Made by a program: the position numbers and the translations under genes. The notes beneath the pieces are model-generated. The model ran no database searches and had not been told where the DNA came from. It saw only the letters and a list, made by a program, of their open reading frames with translations. Below are positions 696-63,806 of a DNA stretch of 64,000 nucleotides, in pieces. The stretch is from assembly GCA_951406725.2 (NCBI GenBank), contig OX597827.1:78988001-79052000 (forward strand), written 5' to 3'. The DNA is from Octopus vulgaris (taxonomy: Eukaryota). Position 1 is the first letter of the stretch; each line of letters opens with the position of its first letter.

Positions 696-1322
696 AATAC
701 GTTTCGTCTTCATCGTTTCCGATTCGTTTTTTTTTAAGAACTTTCATTTCGTATTTTATTTCCTAGTTGGGTGGTTGCGATGGTAAAACGTCTGGTTATT
801 AAAACACAAGAGAACTTCTTAAACAAAGTAAATACGTTTCGTCTTCATCGTTTCCGATTCGTCTTTTATATATTTTATAATTTTGTATTTTATTTCCTAG
901 TTGGGTGGTTGCGATGGTAAAACGTCTGGTTATTAAAACACAAGAGAACTTCTTAAACAAAGTAAATACGTTTCGTCTTCATCGTTTCCGATTCGTCTTT
1001 TATATATTTTATAATTTTGTATTTCATTTCCTTGTTCGCAGCAATGAGCGATGGTAAAACGTCTGGTTATTAAAACACAAGAGAACTTCTTAAACAAAGT
1101 AAATACGTTTCGTCTTCATCGTTTCCGATTCGTCTTTTATATATTTTATAATTTTGTATTTTATTTCCTAGTTGGGTGGTTGCGATGGTAAAACGTCTGG
1201 TTATTAAAACACAAGAGAACTTCTTAAACAAAGTAAATACGTTTCGTCTTCATCGTTTCCGATTCGTCTTTTATATATTTTATAATTTTGTATTTCATTT
1301 CCTTGTTCGCAGCAATGAGCGA
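696..1322. repeat. Tandem array of about 4.6 units of 134-137 bp, two variants in order A,A,B,A,B
   Basis: aatacgtttcgtcttcatcgtttccgattcg recurs at 696, 831, 965, 1102 and 1236. Variant A has cctagttgggtggttgcgatgg; variant B has ccttgttcgcagcaatgagcga. Confidence 0.95.
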
Positions 1323-2005
1323 GAGAAAGAGAAATCGTGAATACCAGAATAAACTTAATAAAGTAAGAAAAATATATTTGGAAGATGAAAAGAAGCAAGA
1401 AGATTTGGAAGAAGAAGCAGAGAGACATTTGCAAGAAAGATCTGAAGACTTTTTTTAATGCTGTTACCTATCTACCTGTTGATTATTATGCGAAAAGCTT
1501 TCCCGGAAAGGGAAAACGAAGCATCGCAGAAACTATTCAAACCGTCGTGGACTTTTTCGATGAAGAAAAAGCTAACGAGAAAGCCAGAAAAAATGTTGAA
1601 TCTGCTATGGACAAGTATATTGAAATGTATTTTCCTGGTGAGTGTAAAGGTTACAACGAACACCTGAACCGCCTTATTGAGAAAGCAGAAAGAATCGAAG
1701 AAATGAACTTCCCTATTTTAAGAGATATTTTGAAGCATATAAGCGATGATGATTCGTGGAAATTAGTTGCCAAACATCTAGGATCGGATGCAGAGGAAAT
1801 TGATATTAAAGCTCAAGAAACCCCACTGGATAAAAAATGCTATGTTTTTATTAACCTGGTGCCCCATAAAATGCACCTAAAGGATCTGTGCCCTAAGCTG
1901 TTATTTGCTCTCAGTGAATATTGTGAGTGTGAAGTTAATACCGAGAAAGTGGAGGCAGTTTTGGACAAGGCCATCGCTGACCAACAAGCTGAATATATTG
2001 ACTAA
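1315..2005 (+). CDS. Intronless death-domain-like protein (about 229 aa if the +1 shift at T7 1450-1456 is corrected; the 206-aa ORF 1385-2005 is the downstream frame)
   Basis: ATG at 1315 gives MSERKRNREYQNKLNKVRKIYLEDEKKQEDLEEEAERHLQERSEDFF*. Removing one T joins it to FFNAVTY.... The C-terminal ILKHISDDDSWKLVAKHLGSDAEEID...CY...LLFALSEY resembles the death-domain pattern WK.LA..LG....EID...LL.AL. Confidence 0.55.
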
Positions 2006-2355
2006 ATATCGACTTTAATTTTTTATTGATATAATACCTGTCTTGAGTGAAAATGCACATGCATGTATATATTTTTATAATAAGGTTTTGGCAATCTTTC
2101 GTTTGTAGCAGCACACGTTTCATTATCGAATTGTTTAATAGAGGTTTTTTTTCTCTCTAAATTATATACATACATACATACATGTATGTATGTATGTACT
2201 GTTGTGTCTGGGAAGAGTCATTTTGTTAAAAACACGTATGGAGACATACAGACATGGTACATAGTCGCAAAACCCCTCACACAGACACTCAGACATGCAC
2301 ACACAAGGAGACAGAGGTACACACATGCATACACACTTTCATGCATACCCTACCT

Positions 2356-2396
<41 letters not shown>

Positions 2397-2549
2397 AAGA
2401 ATATAAGTATATATATATATATATATATATACATACACACATTCTTACATATATACAGTAAATTCCCCCCATCAAAGAACAAACAAAAAAAAAACAACAA
2501 CAACAACACAGGGTGTTGGTTTTTGTTTTCAATACGATTGCTGTAGCAA

Positions 2550-2905
2550 GGGCGGCGAGCTGGCAGAAACATCCGCCGAGGTCGACTTTTCGGGGTCGAT
2601 TAAATAAGTACCAGTTACGCACTGTGGTCGATGTAATCAACTCGATCCGTTTGTCTGTCCTTGTCTGTCCCCGCTGTGTGTAACCCCTTGTGGGCAGTAA
2701 AATAAGAAGCACTCGCATGCAGGGCAAAGTGCTTGGAGCTATTTCCTGCTTCTATACGTTCTGAGTTCAAATTCTGCCGGTTTCGACTATGCCTTTCATC
2801 CTTTCGGAGTCGATAAAATAAGTACTAGTGAAGCACTGGAGTCGATGTAATCAATTTGGCCCTTCCCCGAAACCTGTTTGCCTTGTGCCAAAATATGAAA
2901 CCAAT
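2550..2905 (+). mobile_element. Two partial tRNA-derived SINE copies (here family B)
   Basis: ggcggcgagctggcagaa head, gagttcaaattc B-box and the central block gtcgactttgcctttcatcctttcggggtcgataaat. Further copies at about 17648-17855(+), 21385-21605(-), 26960-27150(-), 44630-44800(+), 45357-45570(+), 47840-47975(-), 49712-49940(-), 58595-58715(-), 59408-59586(-). Confidence 0.85.
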
Positions 2906-3530
2906 ATTCTGGCAGGAGTCCGGTCTTTCAAAGAACTCCCGGACTTTCTTGGCTGTAATTTTATCTCAGAAAGTGAAATGATCCAAGGGAGATAATTAAT
3001 TGGAACTCGGACACGCATTTCTTATTGAGAAAATATTACTAAAAACGAATTTTAATACTCTTTACTCTCTTTTACTTGTTTCAGTCATTTGACTGTGGCC
3101 ATGCTGGAACACCGCCTTTAGTCGAACGAATTGACCCCAGGACTTATTCTTTGTAAGCCTAGTACTTATTCTATCGGTCTCTTTTACCGAACCGCTAAGT
3201 TACGGGGACGTAAACATACCAGCATCGGTCAAATCAGAACTGATGATCAAACAGGGATACAGTTGCAGTGTAAAATGAGGCAGGGCCCTAAATGTAAAGC
3301 TTTTCTTTTAGTGTAATAAACGCAGCAGGTATTTAAGTTAGAAAACATGTCTCCTCATTAAATGGGACACGAGTCTGTCACAGGGTTTAGCCCCAGCTAC
3401 CACTGCAACTCATTTTCAGTTGAAATCAAACTGGAGCAATGTAAAATGAACTGCCTTGCTCAAGGACACAATGTGCTGCCTGGTGCAGGAATTGAACCTA
3501 TGACCCAATGATCACCAGCTCAACATTTAA

Positions 3531-3749
3531 CCCTTTAGCATTCAGATTATTCTGTCAAATATAATATTTATTCATCCATATTGTTTTAAGCTAATCATGC
3601 ATTATTTCGTAGCTTTAAGATTTCGATGATGTTATCACCTGTTTTTAGATTGACATTATAGGTTGGTGTGAGATACCAAATCTGGGCAGTTTTAACAGAA
3701 AACAGGTAGATTATTTGGGCCGGATATGGTCGGTTTAAACACTAAAGGG
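3531..3749. mobile_element. piggyBac-like MITE
   Basis: TTAA on both sides (3527-3530, 3750-3753) with TIRs CCCTTTAG.../...CTAAAGGG. Confidence 0.8.
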
Positions 3750-3805
3750 TTAAATCACCAGACCTTGAAAAACAAAGTGAAATTTCAGAATATTTGTGTC
3801 ATTGT

Positions 3806-4152
3806 TTATTCGTTTTGTTCTGTGGAAGTGTTGCAGTGTTTCTTGTAGCAAGTCTTTTGTGTGTTCTGCCTGACAGAATGGATACGGTATAATCTCTGAT
3901 TCTGTGTGCAATACTGGACTGATTCGGCGTTCGACTGAGGGACGATGCTTTGGTTTTCATTATGTAAAGTGATGCTCGGACCTCTTACTAGGCTTGGTTG
4001 GCAAATGGCCAGTTCCCTGATCTGAGACAGGTGCAGTTTGTAAAGGTAGCTGATATTATTCGTTTGGTCATCTGGGCAGCTGAAAGCCCGGTGCAGAATT
4101 TTCATGGCTCTGACTCTCGGGTTCTCATCAGTGTAAGGCACCATAGAATGTT
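3806..4152 (-). CDS. PCDH: Predicted terminal cytoplasmic exon of protocadherin 1
   Basis: Strong acceptor ttttatttcttttattttacag|AACATT. Phase-1 entry opens 115 codons (EHSMVPYTDENPRVRAMKILHRAFSCPDD...TEQNE*), matching the phase-1 end of exon 6955-6826. Confidence 0.65.
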
Positions 4153-4244
4153 CTGTAAAATAAAAGAAATAAAACATGGTCTTACATACTCTTTTACTTG
4201 TTTCAGTCATTTGACTGTGGCTATGCTGGAGCACCGCCTTTTGG

Positions 4245-4406
4245 TGAAAGAATACAGCAGGGACCACCACCCCCTGCCGGAGCCTCGTGGAGCTTTTTTA
4301 GGTGTTTTCGCTCAATAAACACTCACAACGCCCGGTCTGGGAATCGAAACCGCGATCCTGCGACCGCGAGTCTGCTGCCCTAACCACTAGGCCATTGCGC
4401 CTCCAC
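4245..4406 (-). mobile_element. tRNA-derived SINE (here family D, tRNA-Arg-like head)
   Basis: Minus strand ggaggcgcaatggcctagtggttagggcagcagactcgcggtcgcaggatcgcggtttcgattcccaga with A and B boxes. A longer copy lies at about 32368-32655(+). Confidence 0.8.
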
Positions 4407-4504
4407 ATGTTGAGAAAACTAGGAGAAAGGGGTCTTTTTTTTTGCCTCCCACATGTTAGTTTTGTCAGTAAGGTGGACCCCTAGATTACAGTTGAGCAGC
4501 AGGA

Positions 4505-4845
4505 GATTTTCATCAGAGCGGCTATCTGGCCCCCATGCCGGTGGCACGTAAAAAACACCATTCGAGCATGATCATTACCAAAGTTGCCTTACTGGCACCT
4601 GTGCTGGTGGCATGTGTAAAAGATTCGAGTGAGGTTGTTGCCAGTGCTGCCTGACTGGCCCCGTGCTGGTGGCACTTAAAAGCTCCCACTACACCCTAAG
4701 AGTGGTTGGTGTTAGGAAGGGCATCCAGCTGTAGAAACTCTGCCAAATCAAGATTGGAGCCTGGTGCAGCCATCTGGATCGCCAGCCCTCAGTCATACGT
4801 CCAACCGATGCTAGCATGGAAACGGATGTTAAGCAATGATGATAA
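4505..4845 (+). mobile_element. SINE or LINE 3'-end repeat with (GAT)n tail (here family C, probably RTE-related)
   Basis: gccggtggcacgtaaaa...gttaggaagggcatccagctgtagaaa...ggacgttaa(gat)n. Copies at about 10590-10730, 18075-18215, 30448-30750, 36150-36400, 44175-44450(-), 48375-48560(-), 54265-54565, 55430-55900, 57950-58118, 58168-58385(-). Confidence 0.8.
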
Positions 4846-5221
4846 CAACTACACTGATGAAACTAAAGGGACAAAGTAGGGGACTCTGAAGGTGAGAATA
4901 TAAAGTAAGGAACACCTGGGAATTTTTTCTTGTCTTTCTTTTTGATCAGGAGGAAAGGCAGCACCCTTTGATTCTTTACAGGATCTGTGAGAGTGGTAGG
5001 AAGGATGAAGGTGTCCTCCAACTGAAAACTTGACCTAAATGCCTTCAAATGTACTCAACATGCCAGGTGATGATGTTAAACTGGAAAAGGGATCAATTAG
5101 CTTGCTTACCGACCACATGGTTCTGGGTTCAGTGGCACTGTGGGCAAATGTTTTCTATAGCCTCAGGCTGACCAAAGCCTTGTGAGTGGATTTGGTAGGC
5201 AGAAACTGAAAGAAGCCTGTC

Positions 5222-5274
<53 letters not shown>

Positions 5275-5276
<2 letters not shown>

Positions 5277-6095
5277 TTTAGGGTTAGATGTGGATGTGTA
5301 TGTTTTGCTGGTGCGTTGTGGTGGAGGTCGGGCAGCTCTCAATTGACCAACCGTGCGGAAGATAATGATATTTATGTCATAAGGAAAATTACTAACTGGA
5401 ACCCGGACATACATATATACCGCTCTGGATCCTAATGTAAGCGTTATTAATAATATTATGAATGATAACATTAATGGTATTGACAACGATAATGATGCTA
5501 ACTTTAATGACACTTTAGAAATTAGTATGAAGCAATATAATGTATTATTGACTATGTATATTTGCATCTAGGTACTAATTTGTGTATGTTTATTATCACA
5601 ATATTAAGTCGAAAAACTGAGACATTGGATGTTGAACACATATGTTAACTAATTTATATTATTTACTTATATCATTATGTATATGTATATTCTTATATAT
5701 ATAGGAGTGTGAGTATATGCACTCATATGTATATGTTGTATTATGGGTATGCACCCACACCCATGTGGGTATATATGTAGACTGTTTTATATTACATAAT
5801 CTCCGAAGAGGCCTTATGATATTTTTGTAAATGTCTCATTTATATCTATATATTGACCTACCATAAAGGGCTAATATTGGTAAAATGAGACATACTTATC
5901 TACATGGCCGAAACAGCTGTAAGATATAATCTATACTTATATTTATATTCTCTTTTATATATATTCTACTTATACAACATTACTTTTTTATGTACATTCC
6001 TTTATGTACACTGATTTGTTCTGCTTTTTATATTTAACCCTACATTCTCTTATGTGGTGGTTTAATAAAGTATGTGGTTGAGTATTATCTGGTAA
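5275..6095 (+). mobile_element. Penelope-like element terminal-repeat fragment inserted into the (TA)n of a family-A SINE
   Basis: AT-rich segment containing a hammerhead motif (5799-5925). SINE halves at about 5098-5223 and 6190-6395 flank it through (TA)n tracts. Confidence 0.6.
5799..5925 (+). ncRNA. Type I hammerhead ribozyme motif (PLE-type) with a 100-nt stem II region
   Basis: atct-CCGAAGA-GGCC...GGCC-GAAAC-AGCT-GTA-agat. Stem I atct/agat, palindromic stem III ACAGCTGT, U4C core variant. Confidence 0.6.
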
Positions 6096-6135
6096 TTGAT
6101 ATTTGATTTAGATGTATTTCTCCATTTTCTTATCT

Positions 6136-6186
<51 letters not shown>

Positions 6187-6825
6187 ATGTTTGTGTGTCT
6201 GTGTTTGTCCCCCAACTATCGCTTGACAACCGATGCTGGTGTGTTTATGTCCCCATAACTTTGCAGTTTGCCAATAAAAACCAATAGAATTAGTACTAGG
6301 CTTACAAAGAATAAGTCCTGCGGTCGATTTGTTTGACTAAAGGCGGTGCTCCAGCATGGCCACAGTCAAATGACTGAAAAGAAAAAAGAATAGAAATAAA
6401 AGAATTCAACCAAAATAGAATTCCAACTCGAACTACAAAGAATCTGAATAAATACCACAAGGTATCTGGCTTGAGGTTGTTAAAGTCATGCCTTGGATTG
6501 ATCTCCTTTTTATTAACTCTGAAAGGACGAAAGACAAATCTGACTTTGGTGGGATTTGAACCCAGAATGGAGGGAGTCAGAACAAATACCACAAGGTATC
6601 ATATTTGATGTTTCTAACAGCTCAATCTATTTGTTTTTATTGGTTTCAGATACTGGGCTCTGGTCATGCTGGAGCCCCACCTTTAATTGTTTTCAGTCAA
6701 TTATGCCAACCCCTGTATGTCGTCGTCACCACCACCACCACCACCACCGTCCTTCATCACCCTCATCTTCATCATTACATTAGGTAATATGTGGGGATGC
6801 ATGTGTGGGATGAAGACCTGCCTAC

Positions 6826-6955
6826 CTGGGTTACAGCTGATCTCAGAACCATTCAGTTGAACTGTTTGATCTGGGGGCAGAATCGCCAGGGTGTTCACGC
6901 TAAATTGGTTTCCATCTCTGCCACCAGGGGGAATGGCTAGTTCTTGTACGCAGGT
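6826..6955 (-). CDS. PCDH: Predicted internal cytoplasmic exon (130 nt) of protocadherin 1
   Basis: Acceptor tcttatttcccctag|ACC and donor CCAG|GTAGGC. Open in phase 0 (TCVQELAIPPGGRDGNQFSVNTLAILPPDQTVQLNGSEISCNP) and ends in phase 1. Confidence 0.7.
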
Positions 6956-7294
6956 CTAGGGGAAATAAGATTTGATAAAGTTTAAGTTATAGGGGTCGAA
7001 TTGCAATAGGGCTTGGTTAATTACACTAAAGTTTAGTGGTGTGCACATGCACACATGCAAATGCAGATACAAACACATAGATGCATGCACATCTACAGAT
7101 ACACACACATACATACACAATCAGATATACACATGTATGCACAGATGTACACATATACAGACATGCATAGATACATGCACAAAACATCATGATAGACACA
7201 TACATGTGACACATATACAGGATATAAATACACATACATAAACACACACAACTATACATATAGATTCATTCACACACACACACACGTGTAATAA

Positions 7295-7780
7295 TCCTTT
7301 GTATTATAGGCATAAGGCCTGAAATTTTTGTGGGAGGGGGGAAGCAGTCGATTAGATCGACCCCCGTATGCAACTGGTACTTAATTTATCAACCCCAAAA
7401 GGATGAAAGGCAAAGTCGACCTTAGCGGAATTTGAACTCAGAATGTAATGGCAGATGGAATACTGCTAAGCATTTCCCCCGGCGTGCTAACATTTCTGCC
7501 AGCTCACCGCCTTCATACACGCACACACACACACACACACATTTACCTCTCAATCAGAATGATATAAGAGAGAGGCAATCTGGCAGAATCGTTAGCAGGC
7601 TGGGTGAAATGCTTAGCCGTATTTCATCTGTCTTTATGTTCTGAGTTCAAATTCTGCCAAAGTCGACTTTGCCTTTCATCCTTTTGGGTCGATAAATTAA
7701 ATACAGTTGCATACTAGGGTTGATCTAATCGACTGGTCTCTCCCCCAAAATTCCGGGCCTCGTGCCTAGAGTAGAAAAGA
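7295..7780. mobile_element. Head-to-head inverted pair of family-B SINEs in protocadherin 1 intron
   Basis: Minus copy about 7295-7511 and plus copy about 7574-7780, separated by a short (CA)n-containing spacer. Confidence 0.85.
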
Positions 7781-7989
7781 ATCCGAATGACATCGGGTTA
7801 ACTGGTGTAGAATTGGAGCAGACCTTGGCTTAACCAACAGTAAGAAGCATGTAATGTATAGAATTTAGATGAGAAATGAAAGTCTGGCATTGTTCCAAGA
7901 TTAGGGAGTATGTTAGGTATAGTATTCAGAACCATATATTCTATCTTTGAGAGTAGATATTGGTAGCTTAGACAAGTTTTTCAACTCAC

Positions 7990-10293
7990 CTGTTGTGTAA
8001 TTTCTGTTGTTTCAAGAAGAACAGAAGAGTTGACTCCATCTAAGTTTGGTTGTCTGCATGTTGCTGCACTTGTATGTGCATCTGGATCCGGTGCACTTTG
8101 ATCTGATGGATGGATTTTGCGGTGATAATGCTGATTGTTCCTGTTGTTGCATTTAATAATGCACCATGTCAGTGGAATTGCAAAAGATACGGACATCACA
8201 ACAGCCACCAGGATTATGACGACCAATAAACTTGAATCTAGTCCTACCACAGTTTGTTTTTGAGCAGATGTCTTTGATTTCATTTGTTTGTTGTTAATGG
8301 TCACTGTCAGAGTTAAATTAGTAAGAGACGAGAGAGAAGGCGTACCACTGTCCTTCACAGATATCTGTAGCTCATGGACACCCGAATCGTTGACACTGAT
8401 TTGGCGGGCAAATAGGAGTAAACCTGAGTAATGATTGATATCAAACAAGCTTCGATTGTTTCCTGAGATAATGTTGTATGTAAGGAAAGCATTCTGACCC
8501 CAGTCTATGTCCTTTGCCTTTAAAATGGTAATGTTGTTTTGACTGGAGTTGTGGTAGGAAATATCCAGGGGAAAGGGGTTATTTGGGGGGAATGTGAAAT
8601 AGGGGGCATTATCATTTTCATCTGTAATTATGACATTGATACTTGCTGTGCTGCTCAGTGATGGGGTCCCTTTATCACAAGCCATGACTTCAAACTTGTA
8701 ACAGCCTTGTTGTTCACGGTCTAATGGTTCTTTTGCTGATATCACCCCATCTTTGGAAATTTGAAATGGTGTCTTAGATTCATTGCTGGAAGACAGAGAG
8801 AAATGTAACTGTCCCCCCGCTCCGAGGTCTGCATCTGTGGCACTAAGGACACCAATTGAGATGTTAGCTTGGTTGTTTTCTTTTGTCCAAAACTGATAGA
8901 ATTTCTTGGAAAATTTTGGATGTTCATCGTTAACGTCTGTTATGATGACTGAGAACTTGTCTTTGGTCTGCAAAGGTGGCTTACCCTTGTCACGACAGAT
9001 GATTGTGACGTCATAGTAGTCATTCAACTCTCTGTCAACTTTATTTTTAATAATAACTTTGAATTTCTTGGGACCTAATTCTACCAGTTGGAATTTGTCG
9101 TGGTTCATCTGACATTCAATGTCACCATTTTGACCCACATCTTCATCTTCCACTTTAATGTACGCAATGAAACTACCGACTCGGATCTGTTCCGATATAA
9201 TGGCAGTTTTTCCTGATGCCCTCGACACAAAGTTGAAATATATCTTTGGTGGTTGATTAAGTTGATTGATGACACGCACCAGAACAGCAGCCATAGAACT
9301 GAGAGGAGGTTTGCCTCCATCAATTGCCTCCACATACAACCAATGTGTCAGCTTCTGTCCTGAAATAAACTTCCTCTGCAAGAACAATTCACCTGTCTTC
9401 TCATTCAATTCAAAATGCGATTTTAAATTCTCTGGTGTGTTGATGCTGAAATGGTATGTGATGTCACCATTCCTCTCCGTATCTTTATCACTCGCTGATA
9501 ACACCAGAATCGGAGAAGTCTGATAGTTTTCATTGATGGCAGTAATGTTGTAGGCATTCTGTGCAAATACTGGTGGATTATCATTGACATCAAGAACTTC
9601 CACCTCAACATCCAGAACACTCTCTTTAGGTGGGACCCCACGGTCTTTAGCAATTACCTGCATAGTGTACATATCTTTTGTTTCTCTGTCAAGATTGTCT
9701 TTGAGAGAAATCCACAGTTCATCTGTTTCATCCAGGCGTTTGGACACGGTCAGTGAAAAGGGGTCACTAGAACTGACCTTCAGTTGATAGTCTATCTTTG
9801 AGTTTAATATCCCAATATCTTTATCCAGAGCACTTGGAATCTTCCTTATTCTCCCCCTTTTGTCATCCTCTAAAAACTCTATTTTCACTTTACTCTTTGG
9901 AAATTGGGGCCGATGATCATTAAGGTCCAACACGTATATTTTTATCTCAAGAATTTTCATAAATGTCTCGGCTTTTTTAATTGCAATATCTACACTTCTG
10001 GAACATTCTATTTTCTGAACACACATCGACTCAGCATCTAGTATTTGAGTAGTGTACAGCTTGCCTGTTTTTTCTGACACTCGGAAGAAATGAGAACCGT
10101 CTGTTACACCTTGCCCCACCTGACTGAATCGAATCAGATCCATTTCTTTGGCACTGATGCTGTTCAGCAGCTTAGAATCAGCTCCAATGTCACCAATGTA
10201 TGTGTTTGGTTTTTCGCCTTCTTCCACATAATATATTAAGTCGACACACAAGTAACACTGGAGGTTTATAAACACTAGTAATAGTGCGAACAT
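7990..10293 (-). CDS. PCDH: Protocadherin 1, large ectodomain exon (signal peptide, EC1-EC6, TM, proximal tail); unspliced ORF stops at 7981
   Basis: ATG at 10293 (MFALLLVFINLQCYLC). EC1 Cys-X5-Cys (CVQKIEC); linkers DLNDHRP, DVNDNPP, NQLNQPP, DVNDEHP, DENDNAP; LDRE/VDRE motifs; TM LLVVIILVAVVMSVSFAIPLTWCII; ends at consensus donor CAG|GTGAGT. Confidence 0.96.
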
Positions 10294-10372
10294 GACACGA
10301 TGAAGTTGGACACAGTTTTGTGAGAGTGGTTTCACTCATGAAGCCCCAGGGAGAATACATCAGGTAATTCAT

Positions 10373-10420
10373 CTGCAGTGATGGGTACAGGGTAAGGTAG
10401 TTTGGGGTGAAGACAGGAGA
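10373..10420 (-). promoter_or_regulatory. Putative 3' splice acceptor upstream of protocadherin 1 large exon
   Basis: Minus strand tctcctgtcttcaccccaaactaccttaccctgtacccatcactgcag|ATG, a C-rich pyrimidine tract plus CAG. Confidence 0.5.
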
Positions 10421-11559
10421 CAGCCTTTCTTTATAGTAATTTCATCTTTGAGGGGCCAGAAACTTCACGTCAAATGAGCCAACACCACTGGTTTCGCTTT
10501 TGAATAGAAAACATAAATAAATGTAAAACAAAAGCAAACAAGGATATAATAATGGAGAATTAGTGGAAATTACAATGCATGGGGGGGGATGGTTGACATT
10601 AGGAAGGGCATCCAGCCACAGAAACCCTGCCAAAGCAGACAGTAGAGCTGGGTGTAGTCCTCTGCCTCATTGGCTCCTGTCGAACTGTCCAACCATGCCA
10701 GCATGGAAATCACACATGAGGAGGAGGAGGAGAATGTTGTAAAATATGTGTTGACGGAAACTTCAAGTTTTGCCTAACAAAGCTGAATGGTTGAATAAGC
10801 CATCTCATGAGATTAAAGGTACCACTTCCATGAACCATTAGTAAATATATCAACTCCAGTATTCAACGATGTATCTATTGGTGTTTATTAGTTTTAACTT
10901 TATCCAATTTGGATCCCTTTTGAAGGTTAATTTCCTTTACAAATTTAAATATCATATGGTATTTACACCAAGTTACATTAGTGCCTACAAACACTAACAC
11001 ACATGTGACCATGCTTATTATGCATACACATACATATATATATTCACTACTAACAACATGTTAAGACAAAGTACATTGCTAATGATATAGACTAACTCAT
11101 TGAAAAATCACTGATGTTGTGATAAACTGCTGGGCAGAATGAAAATTCCTTATGTGCAATAGAAGCAGCATTAGAATATAATAGGCACCTGTATAACATA
11201 ATTAATGCAGAGACACTATGCAAGGCAAATTAAGTGTATTATTCATCCAAGGCTGATATCCTTTATGAATGCATTGTTTCAAACCACAAAACTACATTTG
11301 TAGCAAGTGAAAATTGTCCAGCAGCAACTATTTAAATGTCTAGGTATACATTTCTGCCCGATTAGGCTTTGTCGGCAGCATGTACCCATCACTAGCTGCA
11401 AGTTAAGGCAAAATACATCCCTACTGATAGAGGAAAACAGTGATAGGATATTCTGTTGTGTCTGGGGAGAGTCATTCTCTTTTGGTGCCTTATTATTTAA
11501 CACACTCACTGGTAAAATTTCCACCTATTTCTTTTTTATTTTTCTAAAATTTTCGGTGC

Positions 11560-40850: not shown

Positions 40851-43832
40851 TCACGTTTGTTTGTCATCCAATGGAGGTTTTTCTTCTGATGCATAAAGGA
40901 CATGGTAGAACGCACCCTTTGGCATACTTGAACATGGATCACTTCGGTCTGTTGCATTCGACTTCATTGAAGAAATTGTGTCTGACTGCAGAGATGACGT
41001 CGCAGTTGCATTGGACTTGAGTGATGATGTGGCGGTAGTACTTGATGATTTCCCAGAAGACGTTGCTGTTGCGTTTGATTTCAGAGACGATGTGGGGGTG
41101 TTATCTAAAACCAGCGGTGGTGGTGTCACTGCTGTATCAGCTGCCATCGCTGCAGTCTTTTTGATTAACGGTTCATTGCTTTTAGCACAAATAATAATTG
41201 GTTCCTTTTTATGACGTCTCGCTTTGCCTTTCTTCTTTTCCGGAATCTTTTTTGTCGGAAGTTCAACTTTGCGATTGTCACGTTGAACTGCTTTTTCTTT
41301 GAGTGCAATCTTCTGCTCATGGGGCAGAATGTCTCCTTCTAAAACACTCGTCCTCCGTGTTGGTGGGTTGATGAACCTCTTCTTTTGTTCCGACGTTCTT
41401 CTATTTGCGGCTTCTATTTGTTCTGGAGTCATTTTCTGTTCAGGAATAATAATTTTTTGTTCTTGTATTGACATTTCTGCTGAACTACGCTCATTGCTGT
41501 GTCTCCTGGAAAGAGTGGAATTACTGAGACTCTGTTGTTCTGAAGACCTTCTGTTTACTTGCGGATCTGTATGGAATATTTCTTGCTCAGCAGAATAATT
41601 CAAAAGACTTTGTTCAGCTGCTTGTTTTATTGTCGGGCTGACTCGTCCACTTTCTGGTGCTTTGGATTGGTTTTTCCACTGAATAATACAAACTGTTAAT
41701 GAGATCGATATTGATATGGCTATTATCACAGAAAGCAGTACAATAACTATGACCAAATTGAGGTGGATTCTGTCACTCGGCTGTGTTCGCTGGTGCATGA
41801 TCATTTCCTGTGTATCATTGCTGACACTCAGGATTAAAGTTAGTGTTGTTGTTGATGACAGAACGGGAATGCCACTGTCTTTGACGAGGAACTGTAGGTC
41901 ATAGGAACCAGCATCATTTCGGTAAACATCCCGTGTGAAAGACAACAAACCATTATAAGAATCAAGCGCAAACAAATCTCTTTCGTTGCCTCCAACAATT
42001 TCAAACTGAAGGAAGGCGTTTCTTGGACTGTCATTATCGAAAGCTTTCAAAAAAGTGATATTGTTGCTACTTTGTGGTTCATAGTAGACCTCCATAACTG
42101 CAGGATTCTCACTTGGAAAAGTAAAGAATGGTGCATTGTCATTTTCATCCATCACTTCCACAACAACGCTGGCAGAAGTGTTCAGTGAAGGTCTTCCGTT
42201 GTCTCGGACAAACACTGGAAATTCATACAATTCTTTAGTTTCTCGGTCTATTCGGCCTTTTGTGGTGATCAACCCATTCTCCGATATTTGAAAAGGAAGG
42301 CTATTTTCATCTTTCTCAGACATGAAATAGTGGAGTTCACCTCCAGAATCTAAGTCAGGATCAGTAGCATTGACAAAACCAACTGGGAAATTTGGAGCCT
42401 GGTTCTCATAAGAGAGGAACTTGAATGTATCTTTTGTAAATTCTGGTCTCACATCGTTGACGTCTGTCACTTGGATTGAAAACTTACGTTCTGCTTTCAA
42501 TGGAGGCGTCCCTTTGTCTTGACATATTATGGAAAACTCAAAATGGTCTTGTTCTTCTCGGTCTATGGGATTTTTTGCAATTACTTGGTATTCTTTTGAG
42601 CCTAAAATCTGTAGCTGGAATTTATCATGGTTAAGTTCACAAGAAATCTCTCCATTTTGGCCAATATCATCGTCAATAATTATCACATAGGCAATGAAAC
42701 TTCCTACCTTAATGGCTTCTGAGATTGTTGCAGAGTTTTCGGATTGTGAAGTGAGGAATTTAACGTCAATACGGGGAGTTTTATTTTGTTGGTTGATAAC
42801 ATTTACAAATACAACAGCAGTGGAACTTAGGGGAGGATTTCCACCATCGATGACATCTACAAATAATTTATAGGTTAGTATTTGTCTTGATGGGAATCTT
42901 CTCCGCAGGAAGATTTCCCCTGACATTTCATTCAAATCAAAATAGTCTTTGGCAATATTGGAAGTCTGAGAACTAAAGCGGTAAAATATTCGACTGTTCT
43001 CGCCTGCATCTAGATCTGTTGCAGAGAGAGTTACAACTGGTATGGACCTTGGGTGGGATTTTTTAATGGAAACATTATAAACATTCTGTGAGAAAATGGG
43101 TGAGTTGTCGTTAACATCTGAAATGGATATTTGAACCCTTAAACTACTTTGTTGTGGTGGGTATCCTTCATCTTTGGCAATAACTTCCAGAGAATATTGA
43201 TCTCTCACTTCCCTGTCTAACTTTTCATCGAGGATAATTTCAAGTTTGGCCCGGCCGTCAACTCTTTTTGAAACTGTCAATGAAAAGGGTTCGTCTACAT
43301 CTTTACTAAGTTCGTACGTAATTTTGGAAGTTAAGATACCCACATCTCTATCTATTGCATTGGCTATTGATCGCTTTGTGCCCCTTCCATCAGTTTCCGA
43401 GAACCAAAGGTCCACCTGACTGTTGGGAAACTCTGGTCGGTGGTCATTTATATCTTCTATGCTAACTTTTATTTTTAATATTTTAACAAATGCTTCCTCT
43501 TGATGTATCACACATTTTAGAATCCTGAAACAATCCGTGGCATATATGCAAAGGGCTTCAGCATCCAACCTTTTAACTGTGTAAAGCTTCCCTGTTTTGG
43601 AGATGTTAAAAAGCTCAAAGTTTTCCGATGAACCTACATGAAGCTGACTAAATGTGATCTGGCTGTGATCCTGGGCCGAGAACTGGTCATGGAAGTGGGT
43701 GTCTTCAGCTATGTCACCAATCAACGTCCCAGGGCGTTTCTCTTCTGCTACATTGTAGGAAAGGTCTGTGCAGGATGAGTTATGCAGCAGGAGAAACAGT
43801 AACAACAGCTCCGCTAACATAGCCTCATGCAT
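40851..43832 (-). CDS. PCDH: Protocadherin 2 (993 aa; signal peptide, EC1-EC6, TM and long cytoplasmic tail in one exon)
   Basis: Signal MLAELLLLFLLLHNSSC; EC1 CIYATDC; linkers DINDHRP, DVNDNSP, NQQNKTP, DVNDVRP, DENDNAP; LDRE/IDRE motifs; TM LNLVIVIVLLSVIIAISISISLTVCII; no interruptions. Confidence 0.97.
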   Translation of the reverse strand: MHEAMLAELLLLFLLLHNSSCTDLSYNVAEEKRPGTLIGDIAEDTHFHDQFSAQDHSQITFSQLHVGSSENFELFNISKTGKLYTVKRLDAEALCIYATDCFRILKCVIHQEEAFVKILKIKVSIEDINDHRPEFPNSQVDLWFSETDGRGTKRSIANAIDRDVGILTSKITYELSKDVDEPFSLTVSKRVDGRAKLEIILDEKLDREVRDQYSLEVIAKDEGYPPQQSSLRVQISISDVNDNSPIFSQNVYNVSIKKSHPRSIPVVTLSATDLDAGENSRIFYRFSSQTSNIAKDYFDLNEMSGEIFLRRRFPSRQILTYKLFVDVIDGGNPPLSSTAVVFVNVINQQNKTPRIDVKFLTSQSENSATISEAIKVGSFIAYVIIIDDDIGQNGEISCELNHDKFQLQILGSKEYQVIAKNPIDREEQDHFEFSIICQDKGTPPLKAERKFSIQVTDVNDVRPEFTKDTFKFLSYENQAPNFPVGFVNATDPDLDSGGELHYFMSEKDENSLPFQISENGLITTKGRIDRETKELYEFPVFVRDNGRPSLNTSASVVVEVMDENDNAPFFTFPSENPAVMEVYYEPQSSNNITFLKAFDNDSPRNAFLQFEIVGGNERDLFALDSYNGLLSFTRDVYRNDAGSYDLQFLVKDSGIPVLSSTTTLTLILSVSNDTQEMIMHQRTQPSDRIHLNLVIVIVLLSVIIAISISISLTVCIIQWKNQSKAPESGRVSPTIKQAAEQSLLNYSAEQEIFHTDPQVNRRSSEQQSLSNSTLSRRHSNERSSAEMSIQEQKIIIPEQKMTPEQIEAANRRTSEQKKRFINPPTRRTSVLEGDILPHEQKIALKEKAVQRDNRKVELPTKKIPEKKKGKARRHKKEPIIICAKSNEPLIKKTAAMAADTAVTPPPLVLDNTPTSSLKSNATATSSGKSSSTTATSSLKSNATATSSLQSDTISSMKSNATDRSDPCSSMPKGAFYHVLYASEEKPPLDDKQT

Positions 43833-43876
43833 AGCAGTTGCAGACGCTGGTCTTCAAAGAAATATATCTACAGGCC

Positions 43877-59393: not shown

Positions 59394-59625
59394 AAATAAT
59401 AATAACATTCCTTTCTACTATAAGTACAAGGCTTGAAACTTAGGGGAGGGGCATAGTTGATTTTATATCGACCCCAGTACTCAACAGGTACTTTATTTTT
59501 CGACCCCAAAAGGATGAAAGGTAAAGTTGATCTCGGCAGAATTTGAATTTTTCCCAGCATGCTAACGATTCTAACAGTTCACTGCCATGAATAATAATAA
59601 TAATGATAATAATAATAATAATAAT

Positions 59626-59679
<54 letters not shown>

Positions 59680-62126
59680 TCCCATAATTGGAAATCCCCT
59701 GGTAAAGATAGGGTGCCGAATTTCTGGCTCGCATCGCTCCCATGCGCACACGGTAAGCTAGTTCAGCTGCTCAATGGAATTATGAGAGACCCAAAGAAAA
59801 CACCTGAATGGTTAGCAAGTGGCATTACTTACCTACTCCCAAAGAATAACGAAACCAACCTTCCAAAAAACTATCGGCCTATAACCTGTCTATCCACCAC
59901 GTATAAAATCCTAACATCTATCCTGGCAGAGAAAACATATGCATTCATGGAGAAGAACGATATTTTCCCCATTGAACAAAAAGGGTGCCGCCGAGGCTCT
60001 TACGGATGCAAAGATCAACTGCTAATCAATCGTATGATCCTTGAGAACTGTCACAACAAGCGCAGAAATCTCAGCACCGCATGGATTGACTACAAAAAGG
60101 CCTTCGACAGTATACCGCATCCATGGATCTTGAGATCGCTGGACATCTTCAAAATTTCCCCTGTGATTTCAAACTTCCTGAAGCACAATATGTCATTGTG
60201 GAATACGAATCTCCAATTATACCACTCTAATGGAGTACTTGCCTCAGAAAATATAAACATCAACTGTGGAATTTTTCAAGGTGACTCACTTTCACCTTTA
60301 ATATTCTGCATAGCCCTAATACCCCTTACAAGTGAATTAAACAGAACAGGGTATGGGTATAAAATTGCCAATAAAAAAATAAGCCATCTATTTTATATGG
60401 ATGACTTAAAACTTTATGGTAAAGACAATAATGAACTTGAAGGCCTATTGCGCACCGTGAAAGCATTCAGCGATGACATCAGGATGGAGTTTGGACTTGA
60501 GAAGTGTGCCAAGGCCACTTTCCAGAAAGGGAAAGTGAAGACCACAAATTCAGTCGTGTTAGATGTTGACACAGTCATAAGAGAGCTTGAGCAAGAACAA
60601 ACATACAAATATTTAGGGATAAATGAAGGCTCTGGTATTCAGCATGCAAGCATGAAAGAGAAAATCAGGAAGGAATGTTATAGGAGAGTTCGTGCAGTCC
60701 TGAAATCTGAACTAAATGCACGTAACAAGGTGTTAGCTATAAATTCCTTAACAGTTCCAGTTGTTACTTATAGCTACAATGTGTTGAACTGGAATATGAG
60801 TGAAGTAAAGAATATAGATAGAAAAATACGCAAGCTGCTGAGTTGTGATAGGATGCACCACCCAAAGGCAGACGTAGATCGCCTTTACTTTCCCAGAGCC
60901 CAAGGAGGTCGAGGCCTGATCCAATTTGAACTAGCTTACAAAACAGCCAACATTTGGACTGGCCAAATATCTCGAAATATCGAATGACTGGATGCTAAAG
61001 CTCGTGGAAAATCACGAGAGACGAAAGAAGCTTCATTCTATCATAAAGGAAAGCAAAAAATTTGCTATTGATCTCGTGCAAGATACCCAAACTGAACAAC
61101 CCGAGGGAAGTATGGCAACTATTGTTGCAAAGAAGGTGAAAATGATAGCAATGAAAAAAGTGCACGAGCAATTGGCTGATAGGTGGGAGGAGAAACCTCT
61201 GCACGGCAAATATGTGACCCGCAGCAAACAAGCTGATGTTGACCAGACGCAAACCCATCAGTGGCTACGGAGCTCAGGGCTAAAAGCAGAGAGCGAAGGT
61301 TTCATCCTGGCTGCTCAAGATCAAAGCCTATTAACCCGGAACTACCAGGCCAATGTGATGAAAAATGGAGCAGACCCAAAATGCCGATTCTGCAACGACA
61401 TGATTGAAACAGTGGACCACCTAATCTCTGGATGTAAAGTCTTAGCACCAGTGGAGTATAAATTAAGACATGACGGAGTTGGCCAATATCTCCACTGGCT
61501 AATAAGTCGGCATTACAATATCAAAACTGCCGACAAGTGGTATAATCACCACCCTGAGGTTGTAACTGAAGGAGAAAATGTAACCATTCTGTGGGACTTT
61601 CCAGTACATACAGACTGAACCATCAAGGCCAATAAACCAGATATTGTTGTGAAAGACCAAAACAATAAAGTTTACTTATTGATCGACATGAGCATCCCCT
61701 GTGATCATAATATCTCAGCGAAAGAGTTTGACAAGCTCAGAAAATATAAAGACCTACTCATTGAAATTGAGAAAATGTGGCATCTCAAGGCGGTTACAAT
61801 ACCAGTGATCGTAGGAGCACTAGGAATGATCAAGAAGGGAACCGAAAATTATATGAGAATGATCCCTGGCTTACCATCCCTGCAAGAAGTGCAAAAGATT
61901 GTCTTAACTGGTACATCACACGTATTGAGAAGAACATTGTCGATGTGAGAACTGTTGCTGCTCATGTATTTTAATTTAACTTTAAAAAAAAAAAAAAAAA
62001 AAAATGAACGAACTACTGAGTTTGGTTTAATGGCCTACCAATGTATACTATGAGTTTCTTTGCCCTAGGAGTCGGGAAGACACTCGGCAAGAAATGGAAG
62101 CAAATTTGAAAGAAGAAAAAAAAAAG
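59680..62126 (+). mobile_element. 5'-truncated R4/Dong-clade non-LTR retrotransposon (RT + CCHC + restriction-like endonuclease), inactivated
   Basis: HNWKSPGKD, NYRPITCL, QGDSLSPLIFC, YMDDLKLY; CRFC..ETVDHLISGC, RHD, KPDIVV..IDMSIP..K. +1 frameshift near 60953 and in-frame TGA at 61616. (TAA)n on both sides. Confidence 0.93.
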
Positions 62127-62146
62127 TAATAATAATAATAATAATA

Positions 62147-63806
62147 AACAATCAGCCACCTTTTATATATGGATGGCCTAAAACTATACGCTACAAATGA
62201 TAAACAGCTGGAAACACTATTACAGACAGGACATGGATTTACCAAAGAAATAAATATGAAATTTAGATTAGAAAAATGTGTCAAAGCATCCCTGAAAAGA
62301 GGAAAACTAGTTAAGAGGAGCAACATCACACTAGATAAAGCCAATGAAATAAGAGAATTAGACCAAAACCAGACATACAAATATTTAGGAATCAATGAAT
62401 TAGATATGATACAACACACACAAATGAAAGAGAAAATAAAGAAAGAATTCTATAGATGAGTTAGATCAATACTAAAAACTGAGCTCAATGCTAAAAACAA
62501 GATAATAGGTATTAACACTTCAGCTGTCCCAGTTATAAGTTACAGCTACAATATCCTTAACTGGACACTAAATGAACTAACCAAAATAGACAGGAAAACA
62601 AGAAAAATAATGACAGGATCTAGGATGCACCACCTAAAATCTAACATAGAAAGGCTATATATACAATGTATAGAAGGTCGTAGAGGCCATATACAGCTGG
62701 AAAATTATTATAAAATAACCACCATAGGACTGCAAAAATACCTACTTCAGAAGCAAGGAAAACTAATACAAATAGCCAGAAAACATGAGCAAAACAAAAA
62801 CCTGTTCTCAGTATTTAAGGAAGCTGACAAATACAAACAAGAAATAATACCACCTAATAAATATGAAGAAGAAGATGAAGAAACAACAAAAGCTATAAAA
62901 CAAATGAAATCCAAACTAAAAATAGAACAGCAACGAACCATGATAAAACGATGGCAAGAAAAGCCCCTTCACGGCAAATACTGGACTAAACTAAATGCAA
63001 AAGAAATAGACAGAGAAAATCCCCAGCAATAGTTGAGAAGCTCAGGACTCAAAGCAGAGACTGAGGGATTTTTAATTGCAGCACCAGACCAAAGCCTCCC
63101 CACCAGAAATTACCAAAAACATATAATGAAAAGAAACATAACAAGTAACTGCAGAATATGTGGAGATGGGCAAGAAACAATAAATCATATTATCTCTGGC
63201 TGCCCAGTCCTGGCTAAGAAGGAATATATTCACAGACACGACAGAGTTGAGACCTACATACACTGGAAACTATGCCAACACTATGGAATAACAACAGAAA
63301 AAAGATGGTATAGGCACACACCACAAAAGGTCACAGAAAACGAGAAAGCAACCATACTCTGGGATATGCCAATACACACAGATAGAGAAATTAAGGCCAA
63401 TAGGCCAGATATAGTTATCAGAGATCATGAAGAAAAAAATGCTTTCTAATTGATGTATCAATACCAGCAGATGACAACGTGTATCTAAAAGAAATGGAGA
63501 AACTTTCAAAAAAACAAAGACCTGGAAACAGAGGTAACTAGAATGTGGAATCTAAAAACAGAAACACTTCCTATCATAGTAGGTGCATTAGGCATGATAA
63601 AAAAATATTCAGACAAATACATAACAAAAACACCAGGACTTACAAACACATATAACATACAGTAAATTGCACTACTAGGCACTGCACACATCCTACACAG
63701 AACACTTTCAATACAGTAACCATCACAACAAATCACAGCACATACCCAAGGCACACAGAGCTGCACTCGGTAGTGCAGTGAAAGCACGATATGAAAATAA
63801 AACTAG

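Follow-up and report, generated by a model that had tools for sequence, protein, structure and literature searches.

A three-coding-exon protocadherin gene of Octopus vulgaris with small cytoplasmic exons that are probably its own

Structure of the Pcdh1 gene

A stretch of 64,000 nucleotides (nt) of the Octopus vulgaris genome (assembly GCA_951406725.2, contig OX597827.1, positions 78,988,001 to 79,052,000; hereafter the window) carries two protocadherin genes, Pcdh1 and Pcdh2, on its minus strand. We conclude that Pcdh1 is very probably a gene of three coding exons and two GT-AG introns that encodes a single-pass protein of 926 amino acids (aa), with its two small exons likely used by Pcdh1 alone. 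The exons join in frame, one sequencing contig crosses both junctions, the protein is on public record, and octopod orthologues carry it in the same form. The features of the gene are as follows, where contig 19 is an assembled sequence from the sequencing run X3.

7990..10293, minus strand: coding exon 1, 2304 nt, 768 codons, from the open reading frame (ORF) scan and the spliced translation
6956..7989, minus strand: intron 1, 1,034 nt, GT-AG, phase 0, bridged by X3 contig 19
6826..6955, minus strand: coding exon 2, 130 nt, phase 0 to 1, letters 360-489 of X3 contig 19
4153..6825, minus strand: intron 2, 2,673 nt, GT-AG, phase 1, bridged by X3 contig 19
3806..4152, minus strand: terminal coding exon 3, 347 nt, 114 whole codons plus a split codon and the stop, letters 490-846 of X3 contig 19

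The raw ORF spans 7981-10335 on the minus strand. A preliminary description of the window, made from the letters alone, had read its end, CAG/GTGAGT followed by TGA (the slash marks the splice site), as a phase-0 donor two codons before a stop, and this was borne out. The site matches the donor consensus MAG/GTRAGT at 9 of 9 positions, and because only 2 of 3,691 minus-strand GT sites reach that score, it is more than a chance match. Left unspliced, the frame reads V-S-stop at 7981-7989 and translates to 770 aa. The second donor, at 6826 (CAG/GTAGGC), matches at 7 of 9 positions, which 184 of the 3,691 GT sites reach or exceed. The acceptors before 6955 (..TTTCCCCTAG) and 4152 (..ATTTTACAG) hold 14 and 15 pyrimidines, respectively, in 18 letters. 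When 10293-7990, 6955-6826, and 4152-3806 were spliced, they translated in frame to 926 aa with no stop before the end, as the preliminary description had it.

Exon 1 encodes a signal peptide (judged by eye), six cadherin repeats, a transmembrane segment (TM) ending at residue 709 by hydropathy, and 59 juxtamembrane residues; Pfam assigned Cadherin to 6 stretches of the protein, plus Cadherin_2. The cytoplasmic tail has 217 residues, and no Pfam family was found in exon 3. The tail contains RAFSCP (RALSCP in Argonauta), which we take to be compatible with the R-x-x-S-x-P pattern of 14-3-3 binding. An AATAAA at 3805-3810 overlaps the stop codon, and the mRNA would end just past it. By analogy with vertebrates, the protein may act in homophilic neuronal cell recognition through its ectodomain, with the tail as a private signalling part.

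Sequencing contigs across the splice junctions

Contigs from 4 of the 24 listed runs (X1, X2, X3, and X6) were placed on positions 2900-11400. The RNA nature of the runs was guessed; rare variants are dropped from contigs, and contig depth cannot rank the parts of a gene. X3 contig 19 (846 nt, depth 2) is composed of 8348-7990, 6955-6826, and 4152-3796 in this order, with both introns removed at exactly the predicted bases and 2 differing letters in 846. The joins of 7990 to 6955 and of 6826 to 4152, which the preliminary description had put forward as the check on its gene model, are thus both bridged. The contig is unbranched through exon 2, breaks at neither acceptor, and ends 9 nt beyond the AATAAA, although contigs cannot show RNA ends.

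Exon 1 was covered by contigs of X1, X2, and X3 and had almost no cover in X6. Contig 4 of X1 (293 nt) fits the window until exactly 7990; the 88 letters that follow have no listed placement. For X2, a run of another study, the bin 6876-7159, which holds 80 nt of exon 2, has a depth of 1.94; this is 80/284 of 6.89, the contig depth at 8111, and it therefore suggests that a single contig crosses the first junction. The predicted junctions were not among the 15 joints listed, beside which 174 others went unlisted; repeats dominate the joints, and the evidence for the junctions is the composition of the contigs.

Contigs of X1, X2, and X6 also covered exon 3, the DNA downstream of it, and the 3' half of intron 2 without splicing (2900-6100). 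Their depths there were approximately 20-240, compared with 1-9 on exon 1, and this cover was weak in X3. In X6, contig 25 (3531-4212) runs unspliced across the 4152 acceptor. The cover may come from a long antisense 3' untranslated region of a plus-strand gene at 1315-2005, for which a plus-strand AATAAA lies at 6064, one of 8 in 2006-8000, or from a tail-only transcript that starts in intron 2. A terminal exon shared among genes was considered as a source of the high exon 3 depth in X1, X2, and X6 and was rejected, as contig 25 is unspliced and contigs lie on intron 2 as well.

Public records and orthologues

The 926-aa model is identical at every residue to CAI9733427.1, annotated as protocadherin beta-16-like of Octopus vulgaris. 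The three-exon structure is thus already annotated publicly; the same protein implies the same three coding exons in this record, no difference from it was found, and what is added here is a contig across both junctions. A protein search with exon 3 returned CAI9733427.1 and a 924-aa protein of Argonauta hians (GAB1604153.1), and the cluster of CAI9733427.1 also includes XP_052828877.1 of O. bimaculoides (926 aa) and XP_029645457.2 of O. sinensis. The records of all three other species have the Pcdh1 tail and map onto the three exons. Compared with O. bimaculoides, 634/663 ectodomain residues, 40/43 residues of exon 2, and 108/114 of exon 3 were identical; compared with Argonauta, the counts were 478/663, 16/43, and 77/114, respectively.

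Two RefSeq records (XP_029645457.2 and XP_014771503.1; 1,753 and 1,869 aa) present Pcdh2 and Pcdh1 fused, while the current O. bimaculoides records hold them as two genes. The fusions were rejected as likely annotation artefacts.

Layout of the family in coleoids

Of 45 protocadherin ORFs derived from ENA, 3 without a TM were dropped and 42 were counted. The residue pair QV occurred 70-110 residues past the TM, a window picked after inspection of the data, in 37 of the 42, compared with a mean of 5.1 and a maximum of 13 in 1,000 shuffles. We read these pairs, from the translations, as CAG/GT donors that were translated through, and on this reading the layout is family-wide. Raw coleoid protocadherin ORFs that end in QV.. 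would then be truncated at a phase-0 donor. For a cuttlefish-type paralogue, two Logan proteins have 805 residues in common, after which one ends with V.. and a stop and the other continues to 979 aa; pieces of the tail are annotated as separate genes, and the read-through peptides suggest intron phases of 0 and 1, as in Pcdh1. Some database records fuse or split coleoid protocadherin genes.

A motif of the type CP..(4-14)..LYK, found in Pcdh1 at 4040-4110 of the window (exon 3, minus strand), matched 8 of 128 coleoid tails. A profile built from five seeds, which were chosen after the motif had been seen, scored 11.5 bits on the Pcdh1 tail, against a maximum of 9.6 in 1,000 shuffles and 10.4 on an unrelated tail. 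The motif is a weak, post hoc hint of common ancestry of the terminal exons.

In three paralogue groups of Argonauta hians (8, 4, and 4 proteins, the representatives having been preselected to differ by about 10%), mean identity was 62-73% at residues 121-220 or 221-320, which correspond approximately to the extracellular cadherin repeats EC2-EC3, and 93-100% from residue 421 through the TM and tail. Variants of the last 60 residues were distinct in 7/8, 4/4, and 4/4 proteins. This looks like a quasi-constant tail left by recent duplication or gene conversion, with the variation focused on EC2-EC3. In vertebrate clustered protocadherins, EC2-EC3 is the recognition region. No cephalopod paper on such variation or on a quasi-constant tail was found in the literature search.

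A possible short read-through form

Besides the 926-aa form, reading through 7990 with polyadenylation in intron 1 might give a regulated, short-tailed isoform of 770 aa; the two forms can coexist, and we regard the short one as unlikely, if conceivable. A Logan protein from another octopus (89% identity) keeps the stop two codons after the donor and reads QQVS-stop there, both read-through and spliced forms occur for the cuttlefish-type paralogue, and a short isoform of mouse Pcdh10 is described as the product of an extended exon 1 in the available text of PMC9040349. However, none of the contigs listed for the four runs reads through 7990, and those of X1 and X3 part from the intron exactly there. 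Intron 1 has no minus-strand AATAAA, and genomic DNA or pre-mRNA yields read-through ORFs in any case. The distance from the site to the stop is 1-57 residues in other paralogues, so the short spacing is not a feature of the family.

Private or shared cytoplasmic exons

The preliminary description had left two alternatives for the small exons, namely that they are private to Pcdh1 or that they are shared by upstream ectodomain exons, with Pcdh2 as the candidate partner. Pcdh2 and its proposed donor are as follows.

40851..43832, minus strand: Pcdh2 protocadherin, 993 aa in one ORF (40851-43853), with its own 279-residue cytoplasmic tail
41553..41561, minus strand: proposed Pcdh2 donor CAA/GTAAAC, at chance level and likely unused

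The searches with the Pcdh1 tail covered protein collections, from which 127 proteins were fetched, and the reads were compared on 2900-11400 only. Homologues of the exon 3 tail were found in 2 of 9 candidates, in 1 of 33 shorter proteins (where the part upstream of the match is read-through of intron 2), and in 2 of 1.84 billion representatives; all were Pcdh1 orthologues or intron read-through. Among the 127 fetched proteins, the tail was matched in 5, each with a Pcdh1 ectodomain. A protein joining the Pcdh2 ectodomain to the Pcdh1 tail was found neither in the two clusters (3 and 4 members) nor in the tail searches.

The same picture emerged from the 63 proteins with tails of at least 125 aa, in which 46 of 1,953 pairs shared at least 30 of the last 40 residues. 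The ectodomains of these 46 pairs were at least 82.5% identical and their juxtamembrane parts 86-100% identical, and the pairs are therefore close paralogues or orthologues; no pair among the 63 had a tail in common between distant ectodomains. Two records that bear NCBI isoform labels were considered as a case of shared exons and set aside, as their tails differ. A second 5' partner of similar abundance would be expected to break X3 contig 19, and its unbroken course therefore argues against sharing. The exons 6955-6826 and 4152-3806 are likely private to Pcdh1, and the first of the two alternatives fits all the evidence.

It is highly improbable that exons 2 and 3 serve as constant exons to which Pcdh2 or other ectodomain exons upstream are also spliced, in the manner of vertebrate Pcdh-alpha and Pcdh-gamma. 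Pcdh2 lies head-to-tail with Pcdh1 on the same strand, 30.5 kb upstream, and the accessions of the two in O. bimaculoides are consecutive (XP_052828875/6 and XP_052828877.1). The site at 41559/41558 exists as the preliminary description had it, is in phase 0, would join exon 6955 in frame, and outranks all other phase-0 sites past the Pcdh2 TM. It matches the consensus at only 6 of 9 positions, however, lacking -1G and +5G; 705 of the 3,691 GT sites score 6 or more, as do 9 other phase-0 sites of the Pcdh2 ORF, and the proposed donor, which is thus at chance level, is likely unused. Beyond it, the ORF continues for 235 codons, of which 234 are identical in O. bimaculoides and 232 in another record. 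The Pcdh2 cluster consists of XP_052828875/6 and a Logan protein, all of 993 aa, plus one older fusion, and Pcdh2 would be a gene independent of Pcdh1 that carries its own tail without introns.

A TM-proximal phase-0 donor in many coleoid paralogues means that cross-gene joins would often be in frame, and two automatic models fuse Pcdh2 with Pcdh1; these models join ectodomains in tandem and never to exon 2, however, and the join of the O. sinensis fusion is not GT-AG in the window. A sensitive TBLASTN search with seven ectodomains found no third ectodomain exon in the window, whose only two are the minus-strand ORFs of Pcdh1 and Pcdh2, and shared final exons in coleoids are denied in the available text of PMC9068888. 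It is just as improbable that some octopus neurons splice Pcdh2 or farther-upstream ectodomain exons over at least 30 kb onto 6955 and 4152 in a convergent variable and constant system. Such sharing would contradict the explicit statement of PMC9068888 and represent a second origin of the vertebrate design. The variable and constant layout suggested at the outset was not upheld, as no other ectodomain was found with the Pcdh1 tail in the protein collections.

Several points weigh against Pcdh1 as a three-exon gene with private exons. The direct evidence for the junctions is one contig, of depth 2, from 1 of the 4 runs; the runs are presumed to be RNA, their tissue is unrecorded, and the comparison had no DNA run as a control. 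In X1, the bin 6876-7159 has a depth of 9.33, compared with 2.55 explained by the junction contig, and the unexplained excess near exon 2 would also suit sharing. The read comparison covered 2900-11400, so rare sharing with Pcdh2 or exons upstream could escape it. The orthologous models are automatic annotations that may not be independent, and the QV window was a choice made with the data in view. The lack of a DNA run and of a record of RNA would also suit a joined contig that was an assembly artefact or derived from a processed retrocopy, with the exons unused at the locus. This reading is highly improbable, given that each intron begins and ends with canonical splice signals, that the contig is nearly identical to the window, and that the conservation of exon 3 in Argonauta (68%) is near that of the ectodomain (72%).

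At 99% identity to its O. bimaculoides counterpart, including the low-complexity tail, Pcdh2 is unusually conserved next to Pcdh1, for which the figure is 95%. The stop codon of Pcdh2 also sits in a GT site (AC/GTGA, 6 of 9 positions, phase 2).

Comparison with known protocadherin systems

Cephalopod arrays had been characterized in the preliminary description as tandem complete genes, which agrees with the literature; those genes are multi-exonic, however, and small cytoplasmic exons are therefore expected in them. According to the accessible parts of PMC9068888, coleoid protocadherins are multi-exonic, and several first exons spliced onto final exons in common do not occur in them. The accessible parts of PMC6339937, citing Albertin 2015, give 168 multi-exonic PCDH genes without vertebrate CM motifs for O. 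bimaculoides, and its supplement describes a large exon per gene. The portions of PMC9795677, PMC13218726, and PMC9699675 at hand added nothing on exon sharing, and no report of shared exons in cephalopod protocadherins was found in a literature search that most subscription papers lay outside.

Like the genes of these coleoid arrays, as far as PMC9068888 and PMC6339937 describe them, Pcdh1 has a head-to-tail neighbour, one large ectodomain exon (with signal peptide, six cadherin repeats, and one TM), and its own cytoplasmic exons, and the arrays are attributed to whole-gene duplication. It differs in that its donor lies closer to the TM (59 residues, compared with 70-110 in most) and in that clear homologues of its tail are confined to octopod orthologues. 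The layout, in which two GT-AG introns would be removed to join a large ectodomain exon to two small cytoplasmic exons and give the 926-aa protein, may go back to an ancestral coleoid protocadherin and have been passed on by whole-gene duplication.

In vertebrate Pcdh-alpha and Pcdh-gamma, too, a large exon encodes everything from the signal peptide through the six EC repeats and the TM to the juxtamembrane part, with small cytoplasmic exons after it, and the available text of PMC7811963 describes variable exons joined to three shared constant exons. In contrast, Pcdh1 has two small exons, no sharing was found in the protein collections or in the X3 contig, and the upstream Pcdh2, with a complete tail in its own ORF, does not depend on shared exons for its distal tail. 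No vertebrate match to exon 3 was found among the 1.84 billion representatives. As to the conserved cytoplasmic motifs CM1-CM3 of vertebrate delta-protocadherins, the motif RRVTF, as quoted in the accessible part of PMC6339937, is absent from the Pcdh1 tail; no pattern scan was made for CM1 and CM2. Vertebrate delta-protocadherins such as Pcdh10 resemble Pcdh1 in having a large exon 1 and private small cytoplasmic exons, and an extended exon 1 could, by analogy, likewise give a short Pcdh1 isoform. Unlike them, Pcdh1 sits in a tandem array, and no homology of the tails was found. Pcdh1 thus belongs to the coleoid class of tandem multi-exon genes, has a delta-protocadherin-like exon layout, and is not a vertebrate variable and constant system. 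This bears out the gene model on record and the view in the literature that coleoid protocadherins diversified by whole-gene duplication.

Other features of the window

Three further features were noted.

1315-2005, plus strand: intronless gene resembling the uncharacterised LOC115219138 of O. sinensis (229 aa), by sequence match
696-1307: 134-bp tandem repeat of 4.5 copies, directly before the gene at 1315-2005
59575-63449, plus strand: two broken LINE-type reverse transcriptase copies in tandem, recognized by eye in ORF translations

The ORF at 1315-2005 gave no Pfam family above the cut-off and no usable Atlas match. The gene contains a frame shift near 1451-1455, in a run of T.

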